A DNA stretch of 64,000 nucleotides from an uncultured Dehalococcoidales bacterium (lineage in GTDB: Bacteria > Chloroflexota > Dehalococcoidia > GIF9 > UBA5629), in NCBI GenBank assembly GCA_964400675.1, contig CAYNVO010000008.1, forward strand, positions 51,119-115,118. Reading direction: 5' to 3'. Below the pieces are notes generated by a model. That model ran no database searches and was not told the origin of the DNA. It worked only from the letters and a program-made list of their open reading frames with translations. Below, in pieces: positions 4,076 to 41,618 of the stretch (position 1 is the stretch's first letter; each line of letters begins with the position of its first letter). The position numbers and the translations under genes are program-made.

Positions 4076-4151
4076 TGGTGGGCGGTACTGGACTTGAACC
4101 GGTGACCTCTGCGATGTCAACGCAGCGCTCTAACCACTGAGCTAACCGCCC
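4076..4151 (-). tRNA. tRNA-Val (anticodon GAC), CCA encoded
   Basis: Reverse complement folds as a cloverleaf: GGGCGGT/ACCGCCC acceptor, GCTC/GAGC D-stem, CTGCG-TTGACAT-CGCAG anticodon arm, TTCAAGT T-loop, ACCA end. Confidence 0.97.
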
Positions 4152-4286: not shown

Positions 4287-5624
4287 ATGGGTAAAAAGGA
4301 AGGCGATGCCAGGGAATACGTCCTTAAAAGGACAAGAGAGCAAAATATTAAGTTCATACGGCTATGGTTCACCGACATTTTAGGCTTTCTGAAAAGCTTT
4401 TCCATCACTGCCGAACAACTCGAGGAGGCACTAAAAGATGGCATGGGCTTCGATGGTTCCTCCATACAGGGCTTTGCCCGCATCGATGAAAGCGATATGA
4501 TTGCCCTACCTGACCCCAACACTTACCAATTGATACCCTGGGGACTCAAAGAGCAAGGTGTAGCTAGAATGTTCTGCGATATATGCTGGCCCGGCGGGCA
4601 ACCTTTTGAAGGCGACCCACGGTATATATTAAAGAAAAACCTGAAGCGTGCTGCTGACCTGGGCTATACCTTTTACGTTGGTCCAGAGTTGGAATATTTT
4701 TACTTCAAGAACTCCGAAAATACAGAATTTCTAGACCTGGGCGGCTACTTTGACCTGACACCACCGGAGGTCGCCACAGACATAAGAAGAGAAACAATTA
4801 TCTTCCTCGAAGAAATGGGCATCGAGGTCGAGTACAGCCACCACGAAGTCGCCCCCAGTCAGCATGAAATAGACCTCCGTTACACCGATGCTTTGACTAT
4901 GGCAGACAGTGTAATGACCTATCGCTTAGTGGTAAAGCAGGTAGCCCAACAACAAGGGGTTTATGCCACATTCATGCCCAAACCAGTACTCAATGTTAAC
5001 GGTAGCGGCATGCATGTTCACATGTCGCTGTTCAAAGGCAGCAGGAATGCCTTCTTCGATAAAGATGCCCTCTACAATCTGTCAGAAACAGGCAGAAGTT
5101 TCGCCGCTGGATTGCTTAAACACGCCCCCGAAATCACTTCAATCTGCAATCAGTGGATAAACTCCTACAAGCGCATCGTCCCCGGCTATGAAGCCCCCTG
5201 TTACATCACCTGGGCTAAAAGAAACAGGGCTGACTTAATCAGGATTCCTCAATATAAACCGGGAAAGGAAACTGCTACCAGGATAGAGTTCAGGTCACCA
5301 GACCCGGCATGCAATCCATATCTCGCCTTCAGTGCCATGCTGGCCGCAGGACTCGAAGGAATTGAAAAGGGATACAAATTGCCACCGCCTGTAGAGGAGA
5401 ACGTCTTTGAAATGAGCCCGGAAGAACGTGAAAAGAGGAAAATAAAAACATTGCCCGGCAGCTTATACGAAGCTATACAGCTCACCGAAAAGAGTCAGTT
5501 GGTCAGAGAAGCTCTGGGTGACCATGCCTTAGATAGCTTTATCCAGAATAAGAAGGTAGAGTGGGATAGATACCGGACATACGTGACTGATTACGAACTA
5601 AAGAACTATCTGCCAATCCTGTAG
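4287..5624 (+). CDS. glnA: Glutamine synthetase type I
   Basis: FDGSSIQGF, EYSHHEVAPSQHEI, FMPKP..NGSGMHVH, NSYKRIVPGYEAP, RIEFRSPDPACNPYL. ATG at 4287 follows GGAGG, so it is preferred over the ORF-track start. Confidence 0.96.
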   Translation: MGKKEGDAREYVLKRTREQNIKFIRLWFTDILGFLKSFSITAEQLEEALKDGMGFDGSSIQGFARIDESDMIALPDPNTYQLIPWGLKEQGVARMFCDICWPGGQPFEGDPRYILKKNLKRAADLGYTFYVGPELEYFYFKNSENTEFLDLGGYFDLTPPEVATDIRRETIIFLEEMGIEVEYSHHEVAPSQHEIDLRYTDALTMADSVMTYRLVVKQVAQQQGVYATFMPKPVLNVNGSGMHVHMSLFKGSRNAFFDKDALYNLSETGRSFAAGLLKHAPEITSICNQWINSYKRIVPGYEAPCYITWAKRNRADLIRIPQYKPGKETATRIEFRSPDPACNPYLAFSAMLAAGLEGIEKGYKLPPPVEENVFEMSPEEREKRKIKTLPGSLYEAIQLTEKSQLVREALGDHALDSFIQNKKVEWDRYRTYVTDYELKNYLPIL

Positions 5625-8643: not shown

Positions 8644-8717
<74 letters not shown>

Positions 8718-8910: not shown

Positions 8911-8937
8911 TACAATCGCCATTGACCATAAGGCAGT

Positions 8938-8996
8938 GAGCCTTTATTGAAAGTAAATAAAAAGGGACCGCTTGGATCAGCGATGACCGAGACGGG
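8938..8996 (+). ncRNA. pan RNA motif-like cis-regulatory leader (two hairpins with bulged adenosines)
   Basis: Hairpin 1 is cctttatt..aataaa(aa)gg. Hairpin 2 is ccg-cttgg(A)tca-GCGA-tga-ccgag(A)cgg. It lies between the promoter and a terminator upstream of the pan genes. Confidence 0.6.
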
Positions 8997-9017
8997 ATAT
9001 AGTGGCAATGCTAACTG

Positions 9018-27956: not shown

Positions 27957-30900
27957 CTAGGATTTCGAATTTTGGATTTTGGATTTGGCGGTGCCTTTCC
28001 GTCGAGACCTGGTCAACAGGCGATTTATCTCAGCACCCAATTTCTTAACATCAAACGGCTTGGTAATACATGGGACTCCTGTCCTGGCAAGAATGGCTTC
28101 GGTATCCACCCCCATCACGTCACCTGTTATGAACACCACCCGTTTCGCCATGGATGGCTCTATCTCCTTAATACGCTCATACAACTCGCTGCCGCTAATT
28201 TCGGGCAATTTCATGTCCAGCAGTATAAGGTTATAATTATTGCTCTTAATCCGTTTCAAGGTGTCCTTGCCACTGTCCGTGGTCTCCACCTCATGCCCCA
28301 CCTCAGTAAGAACCTGGCTTAACAACTGCCTCACCACCGGCTCATCATCCACCACCAGTATTTTGCCTTTAGCTGTTTTCTCCGCTTTGCGCGCCGGCTT
28401 AGCCTGTCTGGGACGTTTCTCTTCAGTGACTACGGGCAACTCCACGATAAAAGTAGCCCCCTTGCCCATCTGGCTTTCAGCCCATATCCTGCCACCATGC
28501 TCGTTTACTATCCCATGGCAGATGCTCAAACCAAGCCCGGTCCCCTCACCCACCCCCTTGGTAGTAAAGAAGGGGTCGAATATCCTCTCCAGGTTTTCCT
28601 CAGCTATGCCCGGGCCATCGTCTTTAAAAGATACCCGGATGGTATTATCAATGCGCTCTGTCTTAATTATGAGTTTTCCTTTCCTATGTGCTGACCTCAT
28701 CTCCATCTCGGCGTTTATAATCAAATTAAGGAACACCTGCTGAAGCTGACCGGCATCGGCGACAGTCACAGGTATGTCAGGAGCCAGCCTGGCCGTGACC
28801 TTTATATTGCCGGTCTCCAGCTCATAAGCACGCAGACGTAAGACAATCTCGATAATCTGGTTAACATCCACAACCGTACGCTCCGGCCTAGTCTGGCGGG
28901 CAAAAGTGAGCAGCCCTCTTACGACATCAGCCACCCGTTTGCCTCCCTCATAGATAATCTTCAAATCATTCTTTATATGTTCGGGCACATCCTCATACAT
29001 CAACAACTCGGCATAACCGATAACACCGGTAAGGGGGTTATTTATCTCATGGGCGATGCCGGCAGCTAATTCGCCTACGGAAGCCAGACGGCTGGCAAGC
29101 TGTGCCTTTTGCTCCATCCCCCTCCTCTCTTCTTCAGCCTTCTTCCGTTCGGCGATATCCCGCATAACGCCCAGGATACCGATGGGCCGACCATCCGGCT
29201 CACGTATAAAGCTCATCTTCAGTTCAGCCCATAAGAGGGAACCATCACGGCGAATAAATTTTATTTCCAATGTCCTCGACCTGCCCGGGTCCGGTGGCGC
29301 AACATTTGCCCGAGCCATTTCCTCAGCAAAAACATCCAGGGCTAGTTTCTGCGAAGATGGCGTAAGCAGTTGCTCAAATGACATGGACATAATCTCTTCA
29401 GCGGTGCGGTCTACGAGATATTTAGCAGACGGGCTTATATAGGTAAACCGCAAGTTCATATCAGTGGAGAAGATAACGTCTCTTACGTTCTCAGCCAGCA
29501 GTCGATATCGCGCCTCGCTCGCCCGCAGCGACTCCTCAGCTCGCTTGCGCTCTGTGATATCCCGAACGAATACAAACAATCGTTCGCCATCAACTTGCAA
29601 ATAGTTGACACTAATCTCAACGTCAACTATTTCGCCATCCTTGCGGCGATGGCAGCTCTCAAAACGGTCGGAGCCAGTCTCCCTTATCTTCTGGATGCGT
29701 TTGGCTGTTTCCTCTGGTTTCTCTATTGCTTCGATATCTGTGATTACCATATTCAGAAGCTCATCGTGGCTGTAGCCTATCAAACTGCAGTAGGCCTCGT
29801 TCACATCTAAAAAGCGCCCCTGCATATCCGTCTGCCAAAAACCATCTACTGTGGTACGGATGATAGCCCGGTACTCCTGTTCCCTGGCTTTTCGCTCGGT
29901 GATGTCACGGATAAATACAAACTCACGCCCATCATCAGTTGGCAGATAGTTAATACTGACCTCAACGTCAATAATGCTGCCATCTTTGCGCCGGTGACGT
30001 GTTTCAAAGCGGTTCTGGCGTATTTCTTTGATTTCTCGGAAGCGTTCCGTTATCTCCTCCGGCGTCATCATGGCTTCGATGTCCACAATTGACATATTTA
30101 GAAGTTCGTCACGGCTATACCCTATTAAATTGCAGTAGGAGTCGTTTACATCTAATAAGTGCTCCTGCATATCTGCCACCATGTAACCATCTATAGCGGT
30201 GCGGATAATAGTCTGGTACTTCTCCTCAGCCTGCTTGCTCTCGGTGATATCCCGATATACTACCTGGAATCTTTGCTCACCATCCCACAACACCTCTCCA
30301 CGTGACACAGCCAGATTTCGAACCTGACCGCCCTGGCGCACAATGCTGACCTCATAATTGGGTGAGACAAACTCTCCCCGTTTTCTCTTCTCTACTCGTT
30401 CCCTGTGCTCAGCGTAGCTCTCGGGCGTATAAAGTTGCTTTCTAGACACAGCTTCCAGAGCCTTGAGGCTTCCGTAGCCGCATATACTCAGTAAAGCCCG
30501 GTTGACGTAAAGCGTCTTTCCATCCTCGCTGGCAATTCGTATTCCCAGAGGCGAGTTTTCTATTGAGTCACGGAAGTTCTGCTCCGAGAGGCGAAGGGAT
30601 TCTTCAGCTTCCTTACGATCGGTTATGTCACGAACCACGGCTTGAATTGCCGGCTTGCCCTGGTAAACTAAAGGGGCTGCCCTTGCCTCAACATCAATCA
30701 CCGTGCCATCAAGCCTCAGAAACTTTTCTTCCACAGCGAGGGCTATGGTTCCTGTTTCCATCGACTTTTTCATTCTCTGGGCGACAATTTCACGATAGTC
30801 CGGGTGGATGAAGTCCATTACAGGTTTTCCTATGACCTGGTCAGGACTCGAGGCACCATACAACTTCAGTCCGGCACTATTTACGAAGACATGCCTGCCT

Positions 30901-32534
30901 TCAACAGCTACAAAAATGGCTTCAGGAGATAGCTCCACCAGAGAGCGGTACCGATCCTCGCTCTCTCTCAGGACTTCCTCCGCCCGCTTGCGCTCGGTGA
31001 CATCACTGAGTATCGTCTGGATGAACTCTTTATCCCCAATATTGGTTAGTCTGGAAGTCATAACAGCATCGTAAGTAGTGCCATCTTTGCGCCTGAATCG
31101 CATCGGGTAGTCGACAACACTACCATGTCGCCTGATTTCCTGCAGTAATACCTCTCTGTCCGCCTTATCAACGTATGTATCAGCCAGATTAATCCTGCTG
31201 AACTCCTCAGACGAGTAGCCAGTAATGTTTTCCATAGCCTTATTCATGGTTATCACCTTACCATCTATCGAGGAAAAACCGATTCCAAACGGCGCGTTAT
31301 CGAATAGATGGCGGTACCACTGCTCGCTCTCTTCCAGCGCCTGCTCAAGCTTTCTGCGCTCGGTGATGTCCTTAACATAAACACAAAGGCCATCACGCGT
31401 GGGGTAAGCGCTGATGTCAAAAACATAGTCTCTGCCACCGATATAATACTCGTTGACGAAATGCTGCGGCTCCTTCGTCGCCAGCACACTTCGGTACACG
31501 CTTTCGGCTCTTATCGTGGCTTCGTCATCCGAGAAAATATCGGGCATGTGCTTCCCCAGCGCCTCTTCAGCCGGGATTCCGGTGAGTTCTTCACTAGCCC
31601 TGTTCCAATACGTGTACCGCAGCTTGTTGTCCATGGCAAAGAAGACGTCCGTGATGCTTTCGGCAAGTTCCCTGTATCTCGACTCACTTTGTTTTAGGGT
31701 CTCCTCCATCTCCCTCCACTGGGTGACATCATTCACCATATACAGAAGAGCAGGTTTACCTTCCCAGGTGAACGCAGAGTCGGAGAATTCCACCCACCTG
31801 ACATTTCCATTTTTGCCTAGAATCCTGAGAGGTTTCCCATGGTTAGACCAGTCGCCTTTCAACCGCATAGAATAGTTCTCCACCGCTATCTGACGGTCAT
31901 CTGGATGTACAAACTCCAGGAATGGCTTGGAGGTCAGCTCTTCTTGAGAATAACCGGTAATCTCCACAGCCTTGGGGTTGCTGTACTTGGACACGTTATC
32001 CTGAATCACCACAATGATTTCATTGGCATTTTCCACCAGCTCCCGATATCTAACTTCCGAGGCTTGTAGTGCCTCCTCTACCCGCTTGCGCTCGGTGATG
32101 TCCGTATCAAAGACAAGAGCGGCAGGTCTCTCTTCCCAGTTAACTAAGGCAACAGTCCTCTCCAACCACTTGATATTACCCGCTTTGTCAATGATTCTGA
32201 AGGCATAAGCCTGGGGAAGGCTTTCACCCTTTAATCTTCGGGCATGGTAGTCAATCACCATAGCTCGATCATCAGGATAGATAATATCCGCAGGCGATAT
32301 AGAGTTCAGTTCTTCAATCGTGTAGCCTGTGAGTTCCGTGAGCTTGGGGTTAGCAAACTTGATTTTGCCGTCATGGGCCACAGCGATTATCTCAGCCGCA
32401 TTTTCCAGCAGCAGGCGATACCTATCTTCAGCCTTCTTGCTCTCCGCTGCTGAGGCTTCCAGTTCGGCAATCTTCTGGCGCAATTTCTCCAGTTCAGTGA
32501 TGAGCTGCCCGGTGTCCCTATCCGCGTCTTTCAT
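27957..32534 (-). CDS. Soluble hybrid sensor histidine kinase: 9 PAS/PAC domains, HisKA, HATPase, receiver
   Basis: Nine repeats ending in (R)DIT(E)RK-like motifs; AHEINNPL (H-box), QVFLNLIINA, DDGPGI, FFTTK, GTGLGL; receiver VVDDE..LLDMKLP..KPF. Confidence 0.95.
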   Translation of the reverse strand: MKDADRDTGQLITELEKLRQKIAELEASAAESKKAEDRYRLLLENAAEIIAVAHDGKIKFANPKLTELTGYTIEELNSISPADIIYPDDRAMVIDYHARRLKGESLPQAYAFRIIDKAGNIKWLERTVALVNWEERPAALVFDTDITERKRVEEALQASEVRYRELVENANEIIVVIQDNVSKYSNPKAVEITGYSQEELTSKPFLEFVHPDDRQIAVENYSMRLKGDWSNHGKPLRILGKNGNVRWVEFSDSAFTWEGKPALLYMVNDVTQWREMEETLKQSESRYRELAESITDVFFAMDNKLRYTYWNRASEELTGIPAEEALGKHMPDIFSDDEATIRAESVYRSVLATKEPQHFVNEYYIGGRDYVFDISAYPTRDGLCVYVKDITERRKLEQALEESEQWYRHLFDNAPFGIGFSSIDGKVITMNKAMENITGYSSEEFSRINLADTYVDKADREVLLQEIRRHGSVVDYPMRFRRKDGTTYDAVMTSRLTNIGDKEFIQTILSDVTERKRAEEVLRESEDRYRSLVELSPEAIFVAVEGRHVFVNSAGLKLYGASSPDQVIGKPVMDFIHPDYREIVAQRMKKSMETGTIALAVEEKFLRLDGTVIDVEARAAPLVYQGKPAIQAVVRDITDRKEAEESLRLSEQNFRDSIENSPLGIRIASEDGKTLYVNRALLSICGYGSLKALEAVSRKQLYTPESYAEHRERVEKRKRGEFVSPNYEVSIVRQGGQVRNLAVSRGEVLWDGEQRFQVVYRDITESKQAEEKYQTIIRTAIDGYMVADMQEHLLDVNDSYCNLIGYSRDELLNMSIVDIEAMMTPEEITERFREIKEIRQNRFETRHRRKDGSIIDVEVSINYLPTDDGREFVFIRDITERKAREQEYRAIIRTTVDGFWQTDMQGRFLDVNEAYCSLIGYSHDELLNMVITDIEAIEKPEETAKRIQKIRETGSDRFESCHRRKDGEIVDVEISVNYLQVDGERLFVFVRDITERKRAEESLRASEARYRLLAENVRDVIFSTDMNLRFTYISPSAKYLVDRTAEEIMSMSFEQLLTPSSQKLALDVFAEEMARANVAPPDPGRSRTLEIKFIRRDGSLLWAELKMSFIREPDGRPIGILGVMRDIAERKKAEEERRGMEQKAQLASRLASVGELAAGIAHEINNPLTGVIGYAELLMYEDVPEHIKNDLKIIYEGGKRVADVVRGLLTFARQTRPERTVVDVNQIIEIVLRLRAYELETGNIKVTARLAPDIPVTVADAGQLQQVFLNLIINAEMEMRSAHRKGKLIIKTERIDNTIRVSFKDDGPGIAEENLERIFDPFFTTKGVGEGTGLGLSICHGIVNEHGGRIWAESQMGKGATFIVELPVVTEEKRPRQAKPARKAEKTAKGKILVVDDEPVVRQLLSQVLTEVGHEVETTDSGKDTLKRIKSNNYNLILLDMKLPEISGSELYERIKEIEPSMAKRVVFITGDVMGVDTEAILARTGVPCITKPFDVKKLGAEINRLLTRSRRKGTAKSKIQNSKS

Positions 32535-32655
32535 CTCCCACCTCCTTTGAATGGACTGGCTCTACGTGGGGTTACAAAAGGAAACCATTTTGCCTGCCCC
32601 CTTTCTACTATCTTCCGCTGAATATGTCAAGTCAATGAGTCCACTCATGCAAAAC

Positions 32656-32683
32656 TTGACAAGTCTGAAAAAGGTGGTAAAAT
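32656..32683 (+). promoter_or_regulatory. Sigma70 promoter of the T-box/trpB2 transcript
   Basis: TTGACA-16 nt-TAAAAT with TGn extended -10. Confidence 0.75.
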
Positions 32684-32704
32684 GAATGTCTAATTGAATA
32701 CGGC

Positions 32705-32988
32705 AAAGGCTGTGAACAGGACTAGTAAGCCTTTAGGCGAAGCTACAGAGAGTCAGGAGAGGTGAAAGCTGACGCTGGCGCAGAGGCTGAATGGACTTGG
32801 GAGCCGCAAACCGAAAGTTTAGTGTAACTAATACAAGTAGGCTTTGACGCAAAGGGAAGCGTTATCACAACCCGGGGTATCGCTCTAACTGATAGGGCTA
32901 TACCTGAAGGAGATGGTCGAAAGACCAAAAAGGGTGGCACCGCGAAAGTTAAGCCTCTCGCCCCTTAGGCGAGAGGCATTTTGTTTTT
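32705..32988 (+). ncRNA. T-box riboswitch, Trp specifier
   Basis: AGUA and AGAGAG elements, GGTGAAAGCTGA loop, specifier GAA-TGG-A (UGG at 32792-32794), T-box AAGGGTGGCACCGCG (32930-32944), terminator gcctctcgcc/ggcgagaggc followed by T-rich tail. Confidence 0.93.
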
Positions 32989-33016
32989 ATAAAGAGCTTT
33001 CGAAGGAGGTAAAGGC

Positions 33017-33046
33017 ATGACAACAATATTTTGGATGTGGCCCTAG
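33017..33046 (+). CDS. Putative Trp-sensing leader peptide MTTIFWMWP
   Basis: AAGGAGGT Shine-Dalgarno 6 nt upstream; 2 of 9 codons are TGG; lies between the T-box terminator and trpB2. Confidence 0.65.
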   Translation: MTTIFWMWP

Positions 33047-33112
33047 TGGCCAAGAACAAGCTTAATAAGCCTAAACGCATTTTTCAGTTCAAAAACTAAA
33101 AAGGAGGGGAAA

Positions 33113-34480
33113 ATGAAACAAACCAAATTCATCTTAACCGAAAAGGAGATGCCTACGTCATGGTACAACATCCTGGCCGACCTGCCCAAGCCATTGCCGC
33201 CGTTACTGCATCCGGGCACTAAGGAGCCTACCATCCTGCCTCCGCCGTTGTTTGCTTCGGCCTTAAGAGACCAGGAATTCAGCCAGGAGCGCTACATCGA
33301 GATTCCTGAAGAAGTGCAAGATATTTACCGCACGTGGAGACCGACCGCATTACATCGGGCGTATCGGCTTGAGAAAGCTCTGGACACCCCGGCAAAGATT
33401 TTCTACAAGTATGAGGGAACAAGCCAAGCTGGCAGCCACAAGCCTAACACCGCCGTGGCTCAAGCTTACTATGCCAAACAAGATGGGATCAAGCGAATCG
33501 CTACCGAGACCGGCGCCGGCCAGTGGGGCAGCGCCCTGTCAATGGGCTGCATGTTCTTCGGCATCGAGTTAAAGGTGTACATGGTCAAGGTGAGCTACAA
33601 TCAGAAGCCGTACCGCCGCATGCTGATGGAAACCTGGGGAGCCAAGTGTGTGCCCAGCCCCAGCCAGGATACCGAAATAGGGCGCAAGATTTTAGCCGAA
33701 GACCCCGATTCACCCGGCAGCCTGGGCATCGCCATCAGCGAGGCGATAGAGGATGCTTTTGGCCGCGATGACACCTACTACTCCATAGGTAGTGTCATCA
33801 ACTGCGTCTTGCTTCATCAAACCATAAACGGCCTGGAAGCCAAGAAGGCGATGGAGAAGGCTGACGCCTACCCTGATATCATCGTCGGCTGTATCGGCGG
33901 CGGCAGCAATTTCGCCGGGCTGTATTTACCCTTCGTCAAGGATAAAATCGAGGGCAAAAAGCCGAATCTGCGCATTATCAATGTCGAGCCGACAGCCTGC
34001 CCCAGCATGACTAAGGGGCCCTACACCTGGGACTACGGAGACATCGCGGGGATGGCACCGATAGTAAAAATGAATACTCTTGGGCATACCTTCGTCCCAC
34101 CAAAGATCCATGCCGGCGGGCTCCGTTACCATGGCATGGCACCGATAATCTGCCACCTTCATCAACTCGGCTTTGTCGAAGCCAAAGCAGTGCCCCAGGT
34201 GGCAGCTTTCCAGGCTGGCGTGCAGTTTGCGCGAACCGAGGGCATCGTCTCAGCTCCAGAGCCAAACCATGCCATTAAGGTGGTCATAGATGAGGCTTTA
34301 GCGTGTAAAGAATCGGGTGAAAGTAAGACCATCCTGTTAGCTCATAGCGGACATGGACACTTTGACCTGGCAGCTTATGACGAATACCTATCAGGAAAAC
34401 TCCAGGACTACGACTATCCAGAAGAAAAAGTTAAGGAAGCCCTGACGCACCTGCCCAAGGTAGATTACGTAGAGGCATAA
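33113..34480 (+). CDS. trpB2: Tryptophan synthase beta chain type 2 (TrpB2)
   Basis: GSHKPNTA (PLP lysine), [26 protein letters not shown]; long N-terminus typical of TrpB2; under a Trp T-box. Confidence 0.93.
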
Positions 34481-37009: not shown

Positions 37010-40000
37010 TCAAGCTGCCTTTTCAATGCCGAGTGAGATTTCGTAATTCGAAATACGAAACTTCTCAGTATGGCTTCCAGCAGGAGGTACTGCTGAAATC
37101 AACTCCCGGGACAACGTTTCCTGCTTAATGTAGTCGGCAAACTTGGTCATAACCAGATGGACTGAATCCCCACCCTCATAATAGGTGAAGATATGGTCAG
37201 CGATATCTAACCCGGATGAGCGGCGCATGGTCTGCAAACGCCGTACAACTTCACGAGCGATTCCTTCAGCCTCCAACTCTGGCGATAGTTCAGTAGATAC
37301 CGCTACCCAGTGGTCACCTTCAACAGCAGAAACATAGCCAGGTCTATCGCTAACCTTTTCACCTGTATGAAATTCCACTTCCTTTACATTGAGTTCTTCT
37401 AATATCTGATAAGTTAGCTTCTGCAAGGCCTCTTTTTCGCCGGCTGACCCTACCTTGACCAACACCCTGGACAATGGTTGGCGCACTTTAATGCCAGACT
37501 TGGCTCTGGCAGCACGTCCGAGACTGCACACCGTCATAGCCAGGCGCGTAGCTTCAATAAGCTTCTCATCTACCTGTGACAGGTCGGCAACAGGAAAGTC
37601 AGCCATGTGTACGCTTTCCACAGCGTCAGGCTCAACTGAGCAAACCAGATTTCTGTAAATCTCCTCAGCGACAAACGGTGTAAAAGGAGCTAGAAGCTTG
37701 GACAGAGTTACTAAGCAATAATATAGTGTCGAATAAGCAGCCAGCTTATCTGCATCGCTCTGGCTTTTCCAGAAACGACGACGACTTCGCCTGACATACC
37801 AGTTGGAAAGCTCGTCAACAAATAACCCGAGCTTCCGTCCGGCTGAAGTAGGGTCATAATTATCTAAAGCTACATCCACATCAGCCACAAGCTGATTGAG
37901 CCTGGAAAGAATCCATCTATCCAGGTCGGAAAGCGCTGTTACAGATGCCGATTTGGGGTCGAAGCGGTCAATATTGGCATAGATGACAAAAAAGGAATAG
38001 ACATTCCACAACGTGAGCAAGAAATTGCGCAAAACTTCAGAGACCGCATCACTGGAAAAGCGGCGGACATTGCCAGCCGGCGCAGTCGTAAATAGATACC
38101 AGCGTAAAGCATCAGCACCATAGTTATCAAGCACCGACCACGGATCAACAACGTTTCCTTTGGCTTTGCTCATCTTGTCGCCTTCGGCATCAAGAATATG
38201 ACCCAGGCAAATAACGTTCTTGAAGCAGGGACTATCAAAAAGTAATGTCGATATGGCATGTAAGCTGTAAAACCAGCCGCGCGTCTGGTCAACAGCTTCT
38301 GAGATATAGTCGGCAGGAAAACTACGCTTAAAAGTATCCTGATTTTCGAAAGGATAGTGCCACTGAGCAAAGGGCATAGCCCCTGAGTCAAACCAGCAAT
38401 CTATAACCTCCGTTTGCCGTTTCATCCTATCGCCACACTTCGAGCAAGGAAAAGTAATGTCATCCACAAAAGGACGGTGCAAGTCCAGCGGTTCAATCAG
38501 ACCTTCGAGATCTGACTTCGATTTCAGTTCATCAAGGCTGCCGATGCATTCATAGCTGCCACAGCTAGAACAACTCCAGATGTTCAACGGTGTCCCCCAG
38601 TAACGTTCCCGGGAAAAAGCCCAGTCTACATTATTCTCCAACCAGTTACCGAAACGACCATACTTTATGTGCTCAGGATACCAGTTTATCTTGTCATTGC
38701 CAGAAATAAGTGCCTCTTTCTTGAGCGATGTCCTGATGTACCATGTTTTTTTGGCATAGTATAGGAGCGGTGCTTCACAACGCCAGCAAAACGGGTAAGT
38801 ATGAACTATCTGCTCGCTGCGGTAGAGCAATTCCCTTGATTTTAGGTCTTCAAGAACAAGAGAGTCAGCGTCCTTGACAAACTTGCCGGCAAAAGGATAA
38901 GTGCCGGTCATTTTCCCATCCAAATCTACAGGCTGAACGAAATCCAGGCCTTCCTTCTTCCCAGCCTCGAAGTCAACTTCACCGAAGGCCGGGGCAATAT
39001 GGACTATACCAGTTCCGTCTTCCATAGAAACAAAATCGCCGGAAATCACATGGTACGTCAAATTTGCATCCGCCGCTTGCAGGGTCAACATTTCATAGGA
39101 AAGATTCTCTTCAGAGGCACGGGCACCGAAACACGCCCTATCAACATCAAAATCGTGGGGGTTAAATAACGGCTGGTATTCAAGCCCGACTAGGTCTTTA
39201 CCAGGAACAGTAGCTATCGATTTATAACTGTCAAGACCGATTCTTTCCGCCAGCGCCGTAGCCAAAATAAGATAATCCTCAGAGCCCTCCATAATACTAT
39301 ACTGCGCTTCTGAAGCTACGGCCAGAGCGGTATTACCGGGTAGCGTCCACGGAGTCGTCGTCCAGGCTAATAAAAATACAGGTTTATCTGATGGATGCAA
39401 AGCAACAGGAAGCTTAAGATTGTCCATAGAACTACGAGCAAGCTTAAACTTTATGTAAACTGATGGGTCCTCAGCATCATCCCTGTAACCCAGAGCCACC
39501 TCATGGGAACTGAGAGAGGTGCCGCACCGCGGGCAATGGGGAGTAACCCTATAGCCCTGGTAAATCAGGCCCTTGTCCCACAGTTGCTTTAACGCCCACC
39601 AGCAAGACTCTATATAGCTGTTTTCCAGCGTGCGATAAGCGTGTTCTAAATCAAGCCAGAAGCCGATGCGCTCGGTCATGGCATCCCATTCCTTAAGATA
39701 TCTGAATACGCTCTCCCGACAAAGCGCATTGAATTTAGCCACGCCATATTCTTCTATCTGAGCCTTGCCGGTAAAACCCAGCGTCTTCTCAACTTCCAGC
39801 TCTACCGGAAGCCCATGGGTGTCCCAACCAGCCTTACGCGGGACATAGTATCCTTTCATAGTCCTGTGTCGTGGGATGACATCCTTAAACACTCGCGACA
39901 GCACATGATGAATCCCCGGACTACCATTGGCTGTAGGCGGCCCCTCGTATATGGTGAATTGTCGTGCTCCATGCCTGAGTTCGAGACTTTTTTTGAAGAT

Positions 40001-40078
40001 CTGGCGCTCTTGCCAGAAACTGAGGATGGTTCTTTCCAATTGGGGGAAATTAACTTTGCTGTTTACCGGTCGGAACAT
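37010..40078 (-). CDS. ileS: Isoleucine--tRNA ligase (type 2-like)
   Basis: EGPPTANG..GIHH, GWDTHGLPVE, WTTTPWTLP, SRERYWGTP, KMSKA. Confidence 0.97.
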   Translation of the reverse strand: MFRPVNSKVNFPQLERTILSFWQERQIFKKSLELRHGARQFTIYEGPPTANGSPGIHHVLSRVFKDVIPRHRTMKGYYVPRKAGWDTHGLPVELEVEKTLGFTGKAQIEEYGVAKFNALCRESVFRYLKEWDAMTERIGFWLDLEHAYRTLENSYIESCWWALKQLWDKGLIYQGYRVTPHCPRCGTSLSSHEVALGYRDDAEDPSVYIKFKLARSSMDNLKLPVALHPSDKPVFLLAWTTTPWTLPGNTALAVASEAQYSIMEGSEDYLILATALAERIGLDSYKSIATVPGKDLVGLEYQPLFNPHDFDVDRACFGARASEENLSYEMLTLQAADANLTYHVISGDFVSMEDGTGIVHIAPAFGEVDFEAGKKEGLDFVQPVDLDGKMTGTYPFAGKFVKDADSLVLEDLKSRELLYRSEQIVHTYPFCWRCEAPLLYYAKKTWYIRTSLKKEALISGNDKINWYPEHIKYGRFGNWLENNVDWAFSRERYWGTPLNIWSCSSCGSYECIGSLDELKSKSDLEGLIEPLDLHRPFVDDITFPCSKCGDRMKRQTEVIDCWFDSGAMPFAQWHYPFENQDTFKRSFPADYISEAVDQTRGWFYSLHAISTLLFDSPCFKNVICLGHILDAEGDKMSKAKGNVVDPWSVLDNYGADALRWYLFTTAPAGNVRRFSSDAVSEVLRNFLLTLWNVYSFFVIYANIDRFDPKSASVTALSDLDRWILSRLNQLVADVDVALDNYDPTSAGRKLGLFVDELSNWYVRRSRRRFWKSQSDADKLAAYSTLYYCLVTLSKLLAPFTPFVAEEIYRNLVCSVEPDAVESVHMADFPVADLSQVDEKLIEATRLAMTVCSLGRAARAKSGIKVRQPLSRVLVKVGSAGEKEALQKLTYQILEELNVKEVEFHTGEKVSDRPGYVSAVEGDHWVAVSTELSPELEAEGIAREVVRRLQTMRRSSGLDIADHIFTYYEGGDSVHLVMTKFADYIKQETLSRELISAVPPAGSHTEKFRISNYEISLGIEKAA

Positions 40079-40080
40079 GC

Positions 40081-40728
40081 CTAATGCTTCTTCAATAGAA
40101 TAGCTACTTTTCGCATTTCGCCTTCACCCATGCTCTGGGTGGTAACATCCGGATTATCAGTCAAAGCTAAATGAATAATCCTGCGCTCATCTGCAGGCAT
40201 AGGCTCGAGTGTTATCAAGCGTCGGCTTCTTTTCACCTGCTCTGCCAAGCGCAAAGCCAGGTTTTGCAAGGACTCGTAACGTCTCTTCTTATAGCCAGCG
40301 ATATCAACATTTACCGGCACCCACGCCTTCAACTTTTCAGCGACTATCAGCCTGATGATATACTGCAGAGAAGCCAAAGTCTGACCACGACGACCGATCA
40401 AGACCCCAAGGTCATCGCCCTCTATATTCAGAGTCACCGGCAACTCGCCGTTGGTTTCTTGAGTAACAGAAACATCGGCGGTTATTTTCATCAACTTAAT
40501 CAACGTCTCCGTTACATCCTTGGCCACCTCAGCTACATCCAATTTTTCGCCGGATACAGGTAAAAGCGTTACCTTTATCTTGGCCTCCTCAGCGCCCATT
40601 CCCAAAACACCAGACTTACCTTTCTTCAATACCGCCACTTTCACCTCGTCTTCACTGACCCCCAATTGCTCCAGTGCTAACTGCAAAGCCTCGCTAACCG
40701 TTTTCCCGCTTACTTCTAGCTCTTTCAT
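40081..40728 (-). CDS. jag: Jag/KhpB RNA-binding protein (KH + R3H)
   Basis: Jag N-domain, IGRRGQTL (KH), ERRIIH (R3H). Confidence 0.93.
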   Translation of the reverse strand: MKELEVSGKTVSEALQLALEQLGVSEDEVKVAVLKKGKSGVLGMGAEEAKIKVTLLPVSGEKLDVAEVAKDVTETLIKLMKITADVSVTQETNGELPVTLNIEGDDLGVLIGRRGQTLASLQYIIRLIVAEKLKAWVPVNVDIAGYKKRRYESLQNLALRLAEQVKRSRRLITLEPMPADERRIIHLALTDNPDVTTQSMGEGEMRKVAILLKKH

Positions 40729-41618
40729 CTTCCAAAAAACCCTCGCTTCTTCTCATCAGATCCCTTCTTCAATGTCTTAGACTCCTCGGTCGCTTTCTGC
40801 GCCGTCTTGGATGGCTTTTCAGTTGACGATATTCTTTGGACCGGCACAGGTTTTTGAGCCGGAGCTTGAGATAGCGCCGGAGCTGCCCTTGGAGCCGAAG
40901 GAGCCCTCAAATATCCCCAGCCGCCACTGACGAAATACTGAATTATAATGCCAATCACATTTGAAACCACCCAGTACAGAGCCAGGCCACTGGGGAAAGA
41001 CAAGGTAAAGAATCCAAACATCAATGGCATCATCATTGTAGTCATGCTTGTCATAGACTGCTGTTTTGGGTCAGTAGGCGGTGGTGTCACCATCTTCTGC
41101 TGCACCCACATAGTGCCACCCACCAATATGGCCAGTATAAGATTAGGGTCTGGTCGTGACAAATGGAGCCAGAGAAACTGGTCATTCAAAGGTACCGCCT
41201 GACCGACTGTTGCCCAGGAGTAAAGATGTTGCGATAAGCTCAATAAGTTCTCCGGTGTAGCTGCCAGGGCTTGCATGATAGACTGGTACAGAGCTATCCA
41301 TATAGGTAACTGGATAAGCATAGGCCAGAGACAGCCCAGAGGATTAATGCCGGCTTCCTTATACAGCTTCATCATCTCCTGCTGTAATTTCTGCTGGTTT
41401 TTGGCATATTTCTTCTGAAGTTCCTGAATCTTTGGTTGCAGTGTTTGCATTGCCTTGGTAGACTGGGTTTGTCGTACAGTAAGCGGAAACAAAGCCAGGC
41501 GGACAGCAACCGTAAGCACAATGATCGCTAGCCCAAAGCTACCACCTAACATAGTACACAAGGCAATCAAGCTGTTGAGCACGGGCTCAAGGATAATACT
41601 ATTCCACAATTCAGCCAT
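40725..41618 (-). CDS. yidC: Membrane protein insertase YidC
   Basis: VRLALFPL, LQPKIQELQKKY, GCLWPMLIQLP, FPSGLALYW. Confidence 0.95.
   Translation of the reverse strand: MAELWNSIILEPVLNSLIALCTMLGGSFGLAIIVLTVAVRLALFPLTVRQTQSTKAMQTLQPKIQELQKKYAKNQQKLQQEMMKLYKEAGINPLGCLWPMLIQLPIWIALYQSIMQALAATPENLLSLSQHLYSWATVGQAVPLNDQFLWLHLSRPDPNLILAILVGGTMWVQQKMVTPPPTDPKQQSMTSMTTMMMPLMFGFFTLSFPSGLALYWVVSNVIGIIIQYFVSGGWGYLRAPSAPRAAPALSQAPAQKPVPVQRISSTEKPSKTAQKATEESKTLKKGSDEKKRGFFGR

Follow-up and report, generated by a model that had tools for sequence, protein, structure and literature searches.

What would a second element that reads tryptophan do in the leader of a gene already placed behind a tryptophan-sensing T-box? 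The question is raised by a locus in a stretch of 64,000 nucleotides (nt), here called the window, from an uncultured Dehalococcoidales bacterium (contig CAYNVO010000008.1 of assembly GCA_964400675.1, positions 51,119 to 115,118 of the forward strand), in which the gene trpB2, encoding a TrpB-like enzyme, follows a T-box leader RNA specific for tRNA-Trp. The interval from the terminator of this T-box to trpB2 contains a very small open reading frame (ORF), MTTIFWMWP, which has its own Shine-Dalgarno (SD) sequence and two UGG codons, the second of which opens a small hairpin. Here, we report that this mini-ORF and its hairpin belong to a module found in 80 distinct leaders, that the module is specific to tryptophan genes and also occurs where there is no T-box, and that it is apparently an undescribed leader-peptide control module, widespread in Dehalococcoidia-like bacteria. 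Our tentative reading, to which we give slightly less than an even chance, is that the segment from the T-box terminator to trpB2 is a conserved, translated second checkpoint for tryptophan, at which a ribosome would pause when charged tRNA-Trp is scarce and thereby alter the fate of the messenger RNA (mRNA).

A first-pass annotation made from the letters of the DNA had named a Trp T-box with its terminator before trpB2, an SD-led ORF of nine codons with two UGG codons, and a tggcc/ggcca hairpin covering the second of these codons and the stop, and all three are found where it had placed them (Table 1). When 32986-33112 was shuffled 20,000 times with its dinucleotides kept, 0.04% of the shuffles contained an SD-led ORF of at most 30 codons with at least two UGG codons, and 0.7% contained one with at least one UGG codon. 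The further weak hairpins that the annotation had seen before the ribosome-binding site of trpB2 fell away: the fold of 32985-33125 has a z-score of 0.40 against shuffles, and these hairpins are not conserved. Its view that the host lies outside the phylum Firmicutes agrees with the closest TrpB2 relatives (70-92% identity), nearly all of which come from metagenome-assembled genomes (MAGs) of Dehalococcoidia/Chloroflexota; the best metagenomic relatives of TrpB2 reach 96% identity. A cultured host was sought through the TrpB2 homologues, and the top 120 were all metagenomic or MAG proteins.

The mini-ORF is co-transcribed with trpB2. Assembled contigs from a lake-water metatranscriptome are identical to the window and cover, with no interruption, the sequence from about 32719 across the T-box and the mini-ORF into trpB2. 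Because the contigs span all three elements, read-through transcripts that carry the mini-ORF exist in nature. The contigs start downstream of the promoter-like site and leave 32583-32718, the promoter region, uncovered.

Two sets of loci place the mini-ORF in a family. Among 80 loci picked by TrpB2 similarity alone (the unbiased set), about 28 carry an intact module and four a decayed one (L023, L030, L042, and L046). A scan of metagenomes with the pattern GGAGG, 5-9 nt, ATG, 18 nt, TGGCCCC, 3-6 nt, GGGGCC gave 75 matches, 59 of which have a TrpB2 gene within 1.7 kb downstream; the other matches comprise five on contigs too short to judge and 11 chance matches inside long ORFs. Both sets were pooled into the 80 distinct leaders, from Chloroflexota MAGs and metagenomes, to which the counts out of 80 below refer. 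Among the chance matches, four (L100, L114, L119, and L137) are one repeated ORF family, MLxTLVSWPRRGRNCTGSRTEPKPQL..., which is unrelated to the leader module and may come from a mobile element.

The members of the family share one plan: a GGAGG-type SD at the same spacing from the AUG as in the window, the AUG, six codons, a UGG as codon 8, usually CCC, and a GC hairpin. In 74 of the 80 leaders, the AUG is placed exactly 21 nt 5' of the UGG. The hairpin is present in all 80 (median -13.6 kcal/mol, loops of 3-6 nt), and in 72 of them its 5' arm begins at the U of this UGG, the codon forming bases 1-3 of the arm. A purine-rich sequence starting with A-G-A follows directly 3' of the 3' arm, and the distance from the end of the hairpin to the next start codon is 43-67 nt in 75 of the 80 leaders. 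The composition of this spacer across the family is 46% A, 24% U, 15% C, and 15% G; as against the GAG/UAG repeats of TRAP-like sites, it holds at most three to four GA(G/U) triplets, loosely placed and in only some subfamilies. A consensus structure for whole leaders (MAFFT with RNAalifold) contained no predicted pairs, the variable loops being misaligned, and the stem was analysed instead from hairpin calls on each sequence and from pair counts.

Several features of the sequences speak for selection on the reading frame and on the Trp codon. Within the 18 nt from AUG to UGG, which the metagenome search pattern leaves unconstrained, only one of 45 distinct sequences has an in-frame stop, compared with a mean of 14.5 and a minimum of 6 in 2000 shuffling trials. 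In the unbiased set, stem positions 4-7 covary (C-G, G-C, U-A, and A-U), with compensatory examples such as UGGCGCC/GGCGCCG, UGGCUCCC/GGGAGCCG, and GGUCCC/GGGACC, and 5' positions 1-3 are always U, G, and G. Since the UGG is unchanged while the rest of the stem covaries, the Trp codon itself must be selected, beyond its pairing. Of 59 distinct ORFs, 28 have a further UGG as codon 6, far more than the 1 in about 61 that equal codon use would give. Thus, of the conservation that would be expected of the first-pass mini-ORF and its two Trp codons, the ORF and the UGG of codon 8 are kept throughout the family, and the UGG of codon 6 is kept in about half of its members only.

The residue after the Trp of codon 8 is nearly constant as well: it is Pro in 57 of the 59 distinct ORFs and in 26 of 32 in the unbiased set, and in the exceptions a Pro comes one to three codons later (W-R-P, W-L-P, W-G-P-P, W-R-R-P, and W-R-S-P). 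Most members read W-P-R or W-P-L, not W-P-P. Residues 6 and 7 are limited to W/R/Q and R/Q/M/K, respectively. Codons 2-7 as a whole are weakly constrained (pN/pS, the ratio of nonsynonymous to synonymous change, 0.65); the Thr of codon 3 uses all four of its codons, and the Ser of codons 2 and 5 uses three to four. Beyond the Pro, the sequence is unconserved: the length of the loop shifts the frame of the 3' arm, the stop comes 2-31 codons after the Trp of codon 8, and the distance from the stop to the next start ranges from -29 to 135 nt, being mostly 30-50 nt. Two members depart from the plan in the ORF itself, L023, which keeps the hairpin with the Trp codon gone, and L116, which has a stop at codon 7. 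These patterns mark the mini-ORF as no random reading frame but a genuine and conserved leader ORF with Trp codons.

The copy in the window is an atypical, weakened member of this family. Its form, with W-P-stop, the stop in the loop, and a stem of 5 base pairs (bp), is shared by only three of the 80 leaders. In its nearest relative (L103/L135, with a TrpB2 96% identical), the reading is MVIMSQMWPLGGQ-stop and the stem has 7 bp. The run of C after the UGG is one base shorter in the window than in this relative (CCC versus CCCC), and the TAG therefore falls in frame.

The module does not depend on a T-box. Of 79 leaders, 67 have a T-box core no more than 170 nt upstream, and Rfam confirmed a T-box in all 11 of these that were submitted (10 genome loci and L082). 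By contrast, Rfam found no T-box in eight module-bearing loci (L006, L021, L027, L088, L097, L132, L151, and L155). The module of L088 and L151 has trpA before it and trpB2 after it, that of L006 and L021 comes after a promoter or non-coding DNA, and that of L132 and L155 stands behind a classical Trp attenuator and is followed by trpB2. Because the module persists without a T-box, it is an autonomous unit. The attenuator of L132 and L155 (about 2311-2614, + strand, in L132) begins with a promoter, after which a leader of 18-19 codons carries WW or WWW (MKKIRVNKNWWHYYLHAG; MRKIRTNNNWWWGYFFHAG); its UGG codons form part of the 5' arm of a hairpin with a T-run, and a second GC hairpin with a T-run comes next.

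The constant partner of the module is tryptophan. In about 10 metagenomic loci (L082, L087, L099, L104, L113, L115, L122, L123, L139, and L153), the gene directly after the module encodes a lipoprotein of PF04392 (ABC_sub_bind; 335 amino acids, 253 bits), which starts about 88-93 nt after the ATG of the mini-ORF, and trpB2 comes next. We take PF04392 to be the family of the predicted Trp transporter binding subunit TrpX, and the arrangement suggests a trpX-trpB2 salvage operon under a shared leader. L087 has a second T-box (5101-5366, +) before ileS, which leads directly into the SD of that gene, with no mini-ORF. The ileS gene of the window (37010-40078, -) has no T-box in the region checked (39900-40800) and starts 2 nt after the stop of the upstream gene. 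The module is thus Trp-specific, the gene behind it being trpB2, or a TrpX-like gene and then trpB2.

Reduced and unrelated forms also occur. In lineages in which trpB2 follows trpA (L015, L033, L038, L044, L058, and L065), a strong SD is followed by a mere start-stop, ATG-TAG or ATG-TAA, about 60-70 nt before trpB2, at the position that the W-P mini-ORF has in other lineages, and L051, L016, and L018 were grouped with the start-stop or near-variant loci. This SD with its start-stop looks like a shrunken remnant of the W-P mini-ORF that still loads ribosomes. In L036, from a MAG labelled Aminicenantes, a leader reading ...W-H-L-S-W-W-F-R-stop lies about 120-60 nt before trpB2, and a hairpin, GGTTCCG/CGGAACC, begins inside its last UGG and encloses the stop in its loop; this leader showed no clear SD or start. 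Here a Trp codon stands at the foot of a hairpin in unrelated sequence, and the principle is shared with the module. Another family of Trp leader ORFs is seen in L031 and L055, where the interval from T-box to trpB2 holds longer ORFs, 22-37 codons in length, with ...SRATRPW in common close to their ends.

Table 1. Features of the trpB2 leader and gene in the window, in 5' to 3' order
Feature	Position	Strand	Basis or remark
Promoter-like site: TTGACA, 16-nt spacer, TG-extended TAAAAT	32656-32683	+	11 of 12 consensus matches
T-box leader RNA specific for tRNA-Trp	32703-32968	+	Rfam RF00230, 104.8 bits
Trp specifier codon UGG, specifier-loop context GAA-UGG-A	32792-32794	+	Rfam alignment and sequence
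T-box core AGGGUGGCACCGCG	32931-32944	+	Predicted pairing of UGGC with the GCCA end of tRNA-Trp
T-box terminator hairpin, 10 pairs (8 G-C), with U-run	32953-32987 (stem 32953-32977)	+	ATTTTGTTTTT directly 3' of the stem
SD of the mini-ORF, AAGGAGGT	33003-33010	+	7 nt 5' of the AUG
Mini-ORF MTTIFWMWP-stop, 9 codons	33017-33046	+	ATG 33017, TAG 33044-33046
Trp codons UGG of the mini-ORF	33032-33034 (codon 6), 33038-33040 (codon 8)	+	Followed by Pro CCC, 33041-33043
Hairpin UGGCC-CUAGU-GGCCA	33038-33052	+	-7.5 kcal/mol; 5' arm opens on the first base of Trp codon 8
A-rich, unstructured spacer from hairpin to trpB2 ribosome-binding site	33053-33102 (50 nt)	+	No significant fold
SD of trpB2, GGAGGGG	33103-33109	+	
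trpB2, TrpB-like pyridoxal phosphate enzyme, 455 amino acids, regulated gene	33113-34480	+	NF009057, 699 bits; TIGR01415, 622 bits

The first tier of the leader holds no surprise. The T-box matches the full RF00230 model (1-219) with a score above the gathering score of 93, its Trp specifier with the following purine fits the TrpB-like gene, and its UGGN core overlaps an intrinsic terminator. By its sequence it is an ordinary member of RF00230, for which antitermination by uncharged tRNA is predicted. Divergent from this leader, a gene for a sensor histidine kinase of 1525 amino acids with about nine PAS domains (27957-32534, -) starts about 120 nt from the trpB2 promoter. Elsewhere in the window, a pan RNA motif (RF01749, 44.1 bits; 8917-8999, +) lies just 3' of a tRNA gene (8644-8716, +), and a second tRNA gene is on the minus strand (4079-4151, -).

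How might the second tier work? Transcripts that get past the first tier, usually the T-box, would meet a second checkpoint at the mini-ORF. A ribosome covers about 12-15 nt downstream of the codon in its A site; with the UGG of codon 8, or that of codon 6 where present, in the A site, the ribosome encloses the whole 5' arm and prevents the hairpin from forming, as happens to segment 1 of classical trp attenuators. A shortage of charged tRNA-Trp would make the ribosome wait at either UGG with the 5' arm in its mRNA channel, so that the hairpin would be held open and the ribosome parked on the message. When Trp-tRNA is plentiful, the ribosome would run through and leave, and the hairpin would re-form. 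The output is probably a changed fate of the downstream mRNA rather than masking of the trpB2 ribosome-binding site: for example, the closed hairpin may guide an endonuclease to cleave in the purine- and A-rich spacer, and a parked ribosome may protect the message. We infer the translation of the mini-ORF, the pausing at UGG, the direction of the effect, and the step that alters mRNA fate; up to the hairpin held by a ribosome, it is the conserved anatomy of the leaders that points this way.

An effect on mRNA fate is favoured because the familiar outputs all fail, namely masking of the SD, an intrinsic terminator, a Rho site, and the stop geometry of the B. subtilis at operon. The accessibility of the next SD was assessed by partition-function folding of 24 leaders in which the stretch covered by the ribosome was left free or forced open; the SD and start were unpaired with a probability of 0.64 in the former state and 0.67 in the latter. 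An SD-masking switch is rejected on this ground, and the hairpin and the SD have no alternative pairing. A second intrinsic terminator after the hairpin was likewise rejected, none having been found, and a Rho site is unsupported by a spacer of about 30-45 nt that is A-rich with equal C and G. Bypassing of the gap of about 50 nt in the manner of T4 gene 60 was rejected too, as there is no matching landing codon before trpB2.

The same results weigh against our checkpoint reading, along with others. The SD is as open with a stalled ribosome as without one, 33053-33112 contains no terminator-like site, and the spacer is not C-rich. Translation and pausing are our deductions from the leaders, and the output step is a guess. 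Where classical leaders usually have tandem regulatory codons, the module has a single invariant Trp codon. The kept Pro and the fixed distance of seven codons would be superfluous for sensing a codon, and they hint at an effect of the nascent peptide. A second sensor based on Trp codons looks redundant behind the WW/WWW attenuator of L132 and L155. The lineages that keep only the SD, AUG, and stop suggest that ribosome loading alone has some value. Finally, the hairpin in the window, with its 5 bp, is in the weakest class of the family.

The hint from the Pro leads to the most serious rival, in which the peptide M-x6-W-P stalls its own ribosome at Trp-Pro, while the P site holds peptidyl-tRNA-Trp and the A site holds Pro-tRNA, which accepts poorly. 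Such a stall would occur constitutively or would respond to a small molecule (free tryptophan or indole, for instance), and the peptide would then belong with ErmCL, TnaC, and PepNL rather than with sensors of hungry codons. Such an arrest would account for the fixed length of the peptide up to the Pro, for the near-constant Pro that reappears within a few codons where it is displaced, for the restricted residues 6 and 7, and for the free position of the stop and the varying frame of the 3' arm, which are expected if ribosomes rarely pass W-P. The fixed length, the Pro, and the indifference to what comes after W-P exceed the needs of a sensor of hungry codons and are common traits of short arrest peptides. 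It would also make the position behind a classical attenuator in L132 and L155 less redundant, since a different signal would be sensed. Sequences of the W-P-P type and R-x-P-P are known to arrest ribosomes in Escherichia coli (PMC11669330), and the 14-residue PepNL, which is modulated by Trp, offers a precedent (PMC11890864). Yet codons 2-7 are weakly constrained, the members mostly read W-P-R or W-P-L rather than the known W-P-P, no output of an arrest such as unmasking of an SD is predicted, and the logic of an arrest induced by Trp is not obvious for a biosynthetic gene. The CCC, moreover, may be kept just for the GC stem, as the Pro of codon 9 is lost when the sequence of the stem changes (6 of 32 in the unbiased set). 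On balance we consider such an arrest unlikely, though worth serious attention: if it is true, the leader would read free Trp in addition to the tRNA charging that the T-box reads. A bolder form of the idea, which we rate as somewhat less probable still, makes the nine residues M-x6-W-P a portable arrest sensor for a signal other than the charging of tRNA-Trp (free tryptophan or indole); the hairpin footed on UGG, toggled by the stalled or departed ribosome, would then bring an RNase or some other factor to the message. A leader-peptide switch of this kind would form a new class and would give Chloroflexota a "free Trp" input; we know of no TrpR or TRAP in this phylum.

The other explanations give the Trp codon a smaller role or place the output at the next start. 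If the strong SD and tiny ORF served as a loader or stabiliser of ribosomes independent of Trp, protecting or priming the message after the long untranslated T-box leader, the UGG would be a mere part of the stem. The SD after the terminator is indeed kept where the ORF is AUG-stop, has two to three codons, or has lost its AUG (L001, L002, L015, L026, L033, L038, L044, L058, and L065), and the ribosome-binding site of trpB2 is predicted to be constitutively open. We nevertheless hold this to be improbable, because the UGG is invariant against the covarying rest of the stem, the UGG of codon 6 is strongly over-represented, and the module is found solely with Trp genes and is missing from the ileS T-box of the same lineage. 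That only the RNA matters, the hairpin being a site for protein binding or processing and the ORF being untranslated or a feature of chance, is more doubtful again. No structure of the segment is more stable or better conserved than the hairpin, and L023 and L116 keep it without the Trp codon or with an early stop, respectively; on the other hand, the SD is optimal, the AUG is in register in nearly all leaders, the frame is held open, such ORFs are very rare in shuffles, and the UGG does not vary.

Least probable of all, and in our view close to negligible, is the mechanism of the at operon (rtpLP), to which the first-pass annotation had likened the locus, in which a ribosome that finishes the mini-ORF would block initiation at trpB2, sterically or through the weak hairpins, and stalling at the Trp codons would relieve the block. 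The order of elements is alike (T-box, terminator, leader ORF with Trp codons, regulated gene), and in a few relatives the mini-ORF does meet the next start, with a TGA/ATG overlap in L082, L099, and L139 and the SD read through in L034, L130, and L131. In the window, however, the stop lies 56 nt before the SD of trpB2, and the widely varying distance from stop to next start in the family allows no constant steric relation; the SD and start are equally unpaired whether or not a ribosome is stalled; and the weak hairpins are neither significant nor conserved. Of the two-tier switch proposed there, the tandem sensing of Trp is thus supported, and the at-operon mechanism is not.

The T-box itself is not new, one having been described on a "trpB-like" gene of Dehalococcoides in 2008 (PMC2494555). 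In line with the first-pass annotation, which knew of no such case, the searchable literature yielded no description of a leader ORF after Chloroflexota Trp T-boxes, and Rfam has no family for 32960-33130, where it gave only noise matches at E-values up to 10. To our knowledge, tandem sensing of one amino acid by a T-box and a ribosome is established in the B. subtilis at operon alone. Here, a Trp codon read by the ribosome would have been recruited behind Trp T-boxes in a different phylum, in a different and more modular architecture. The combination of SD, AUG, six codons, and a UGG at the foot of a hairpin appears to be a portable unit that can also be placed within an operon, after a classical attenuator, or with nothing but a promoter before it. 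It adds to the known bacterial regulatory upstream ORFs and flags small ORFs that have gone unannotated in Dehalococcoidia, which are abundant in sediments, groundwater, and anoxic lake water, and it is a compact candidate for a Trp-responsive part in synthetic biology. Because the textbook outputs (masking of the SD, an intrinsic terminator, and a Rho site) all misfit, the module could turn out to control the gene downstream through a paused ribosome in a new manner.

Comparison with known systems brings out what is shared and what is particular. In the at (rtpA-ycbK) operon of B. subtilis, Chen and Yanofsky (2003/2004) reportedly found that a ribosome at the rtpLP stop blocks the adjacent SD of rtpA. 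That operon resembles our locus in the order of Trp T-box, terminator, Trp-codon leader ORF, and gene, and in its tandem sensing, at transcription and by a translating ribosome. The two differ in that rtpLP has three consecutive Trp codons and a stop only a few nt from the SD of rtpA, whereas the module has one invariant Trp at the foot of a hairpin and a free stop, with the next SD about 35-55 nt away, beyond the footprint of a ribosome at the stop, and predicted to be open. The module also belongs to another phylum and to other genes (trpB2 and trpX-like), and the two have no sequence similarity.

Attenuators of the trpL type, known from E. coli and the Actinobacteria (PMC1262725), likewise carry Trp codons in the 5' arm of their first hairpin ("1:2"), which a stalled ribosome prevents from forming, and the module has its regulatory codon in the same place in nearly all leaders. 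Unlike them, the module has neither a 2:3 antiterminator nor a 3:4 intrinsic terminator, its hairpin is followed by a purine- and A-rich stretch in place of a U-run, and it is placed after another, complete attenuator, either a T-box or, in L132 and L155, a WW(W) leader with its terminator.

TnaC is a leader peptide of 24 residues with W12, D16, and P24 before the stop; it blocks a Rho site and thereby induces the catabolic tna operon. It is like the module in being a short leader peptide with an essential Trp and Pro that stalls at the Pro according to tryptophan status. In the module, by contrast, W8 and P9 are adjacent instead of spaced as W-x3-D-x7-P with a terminal Pro, there is no conserved Asp, the stop is free, the spacer is short and lacks a C-rich, G-poor Rho region, and the gene is biosynthetic.

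ErmCL, a still shorter case, stalls at codon 9. The synthetic motifs FXXYXIWPPP and RXPP stall E. coli ribosomes (PMC11669330), and PepNL is an arrest peptide of 14 residues with Trp as an inhibitor of arrest, modulated by Trp-tRNA (PMC11890864). In the known natural arrest systems of this kind, it is the stalled ribosome that melts a hairpin hiding the next SD, whereas the hairpin of the module holds no SD, the peptide mostly reads W-P-R or W-P-L, and its arrest is hypothetical. What the module has in common with them is the very short chain, and W-P(-P) and R-x-P-P are proven contexts for a ribosome to stall.

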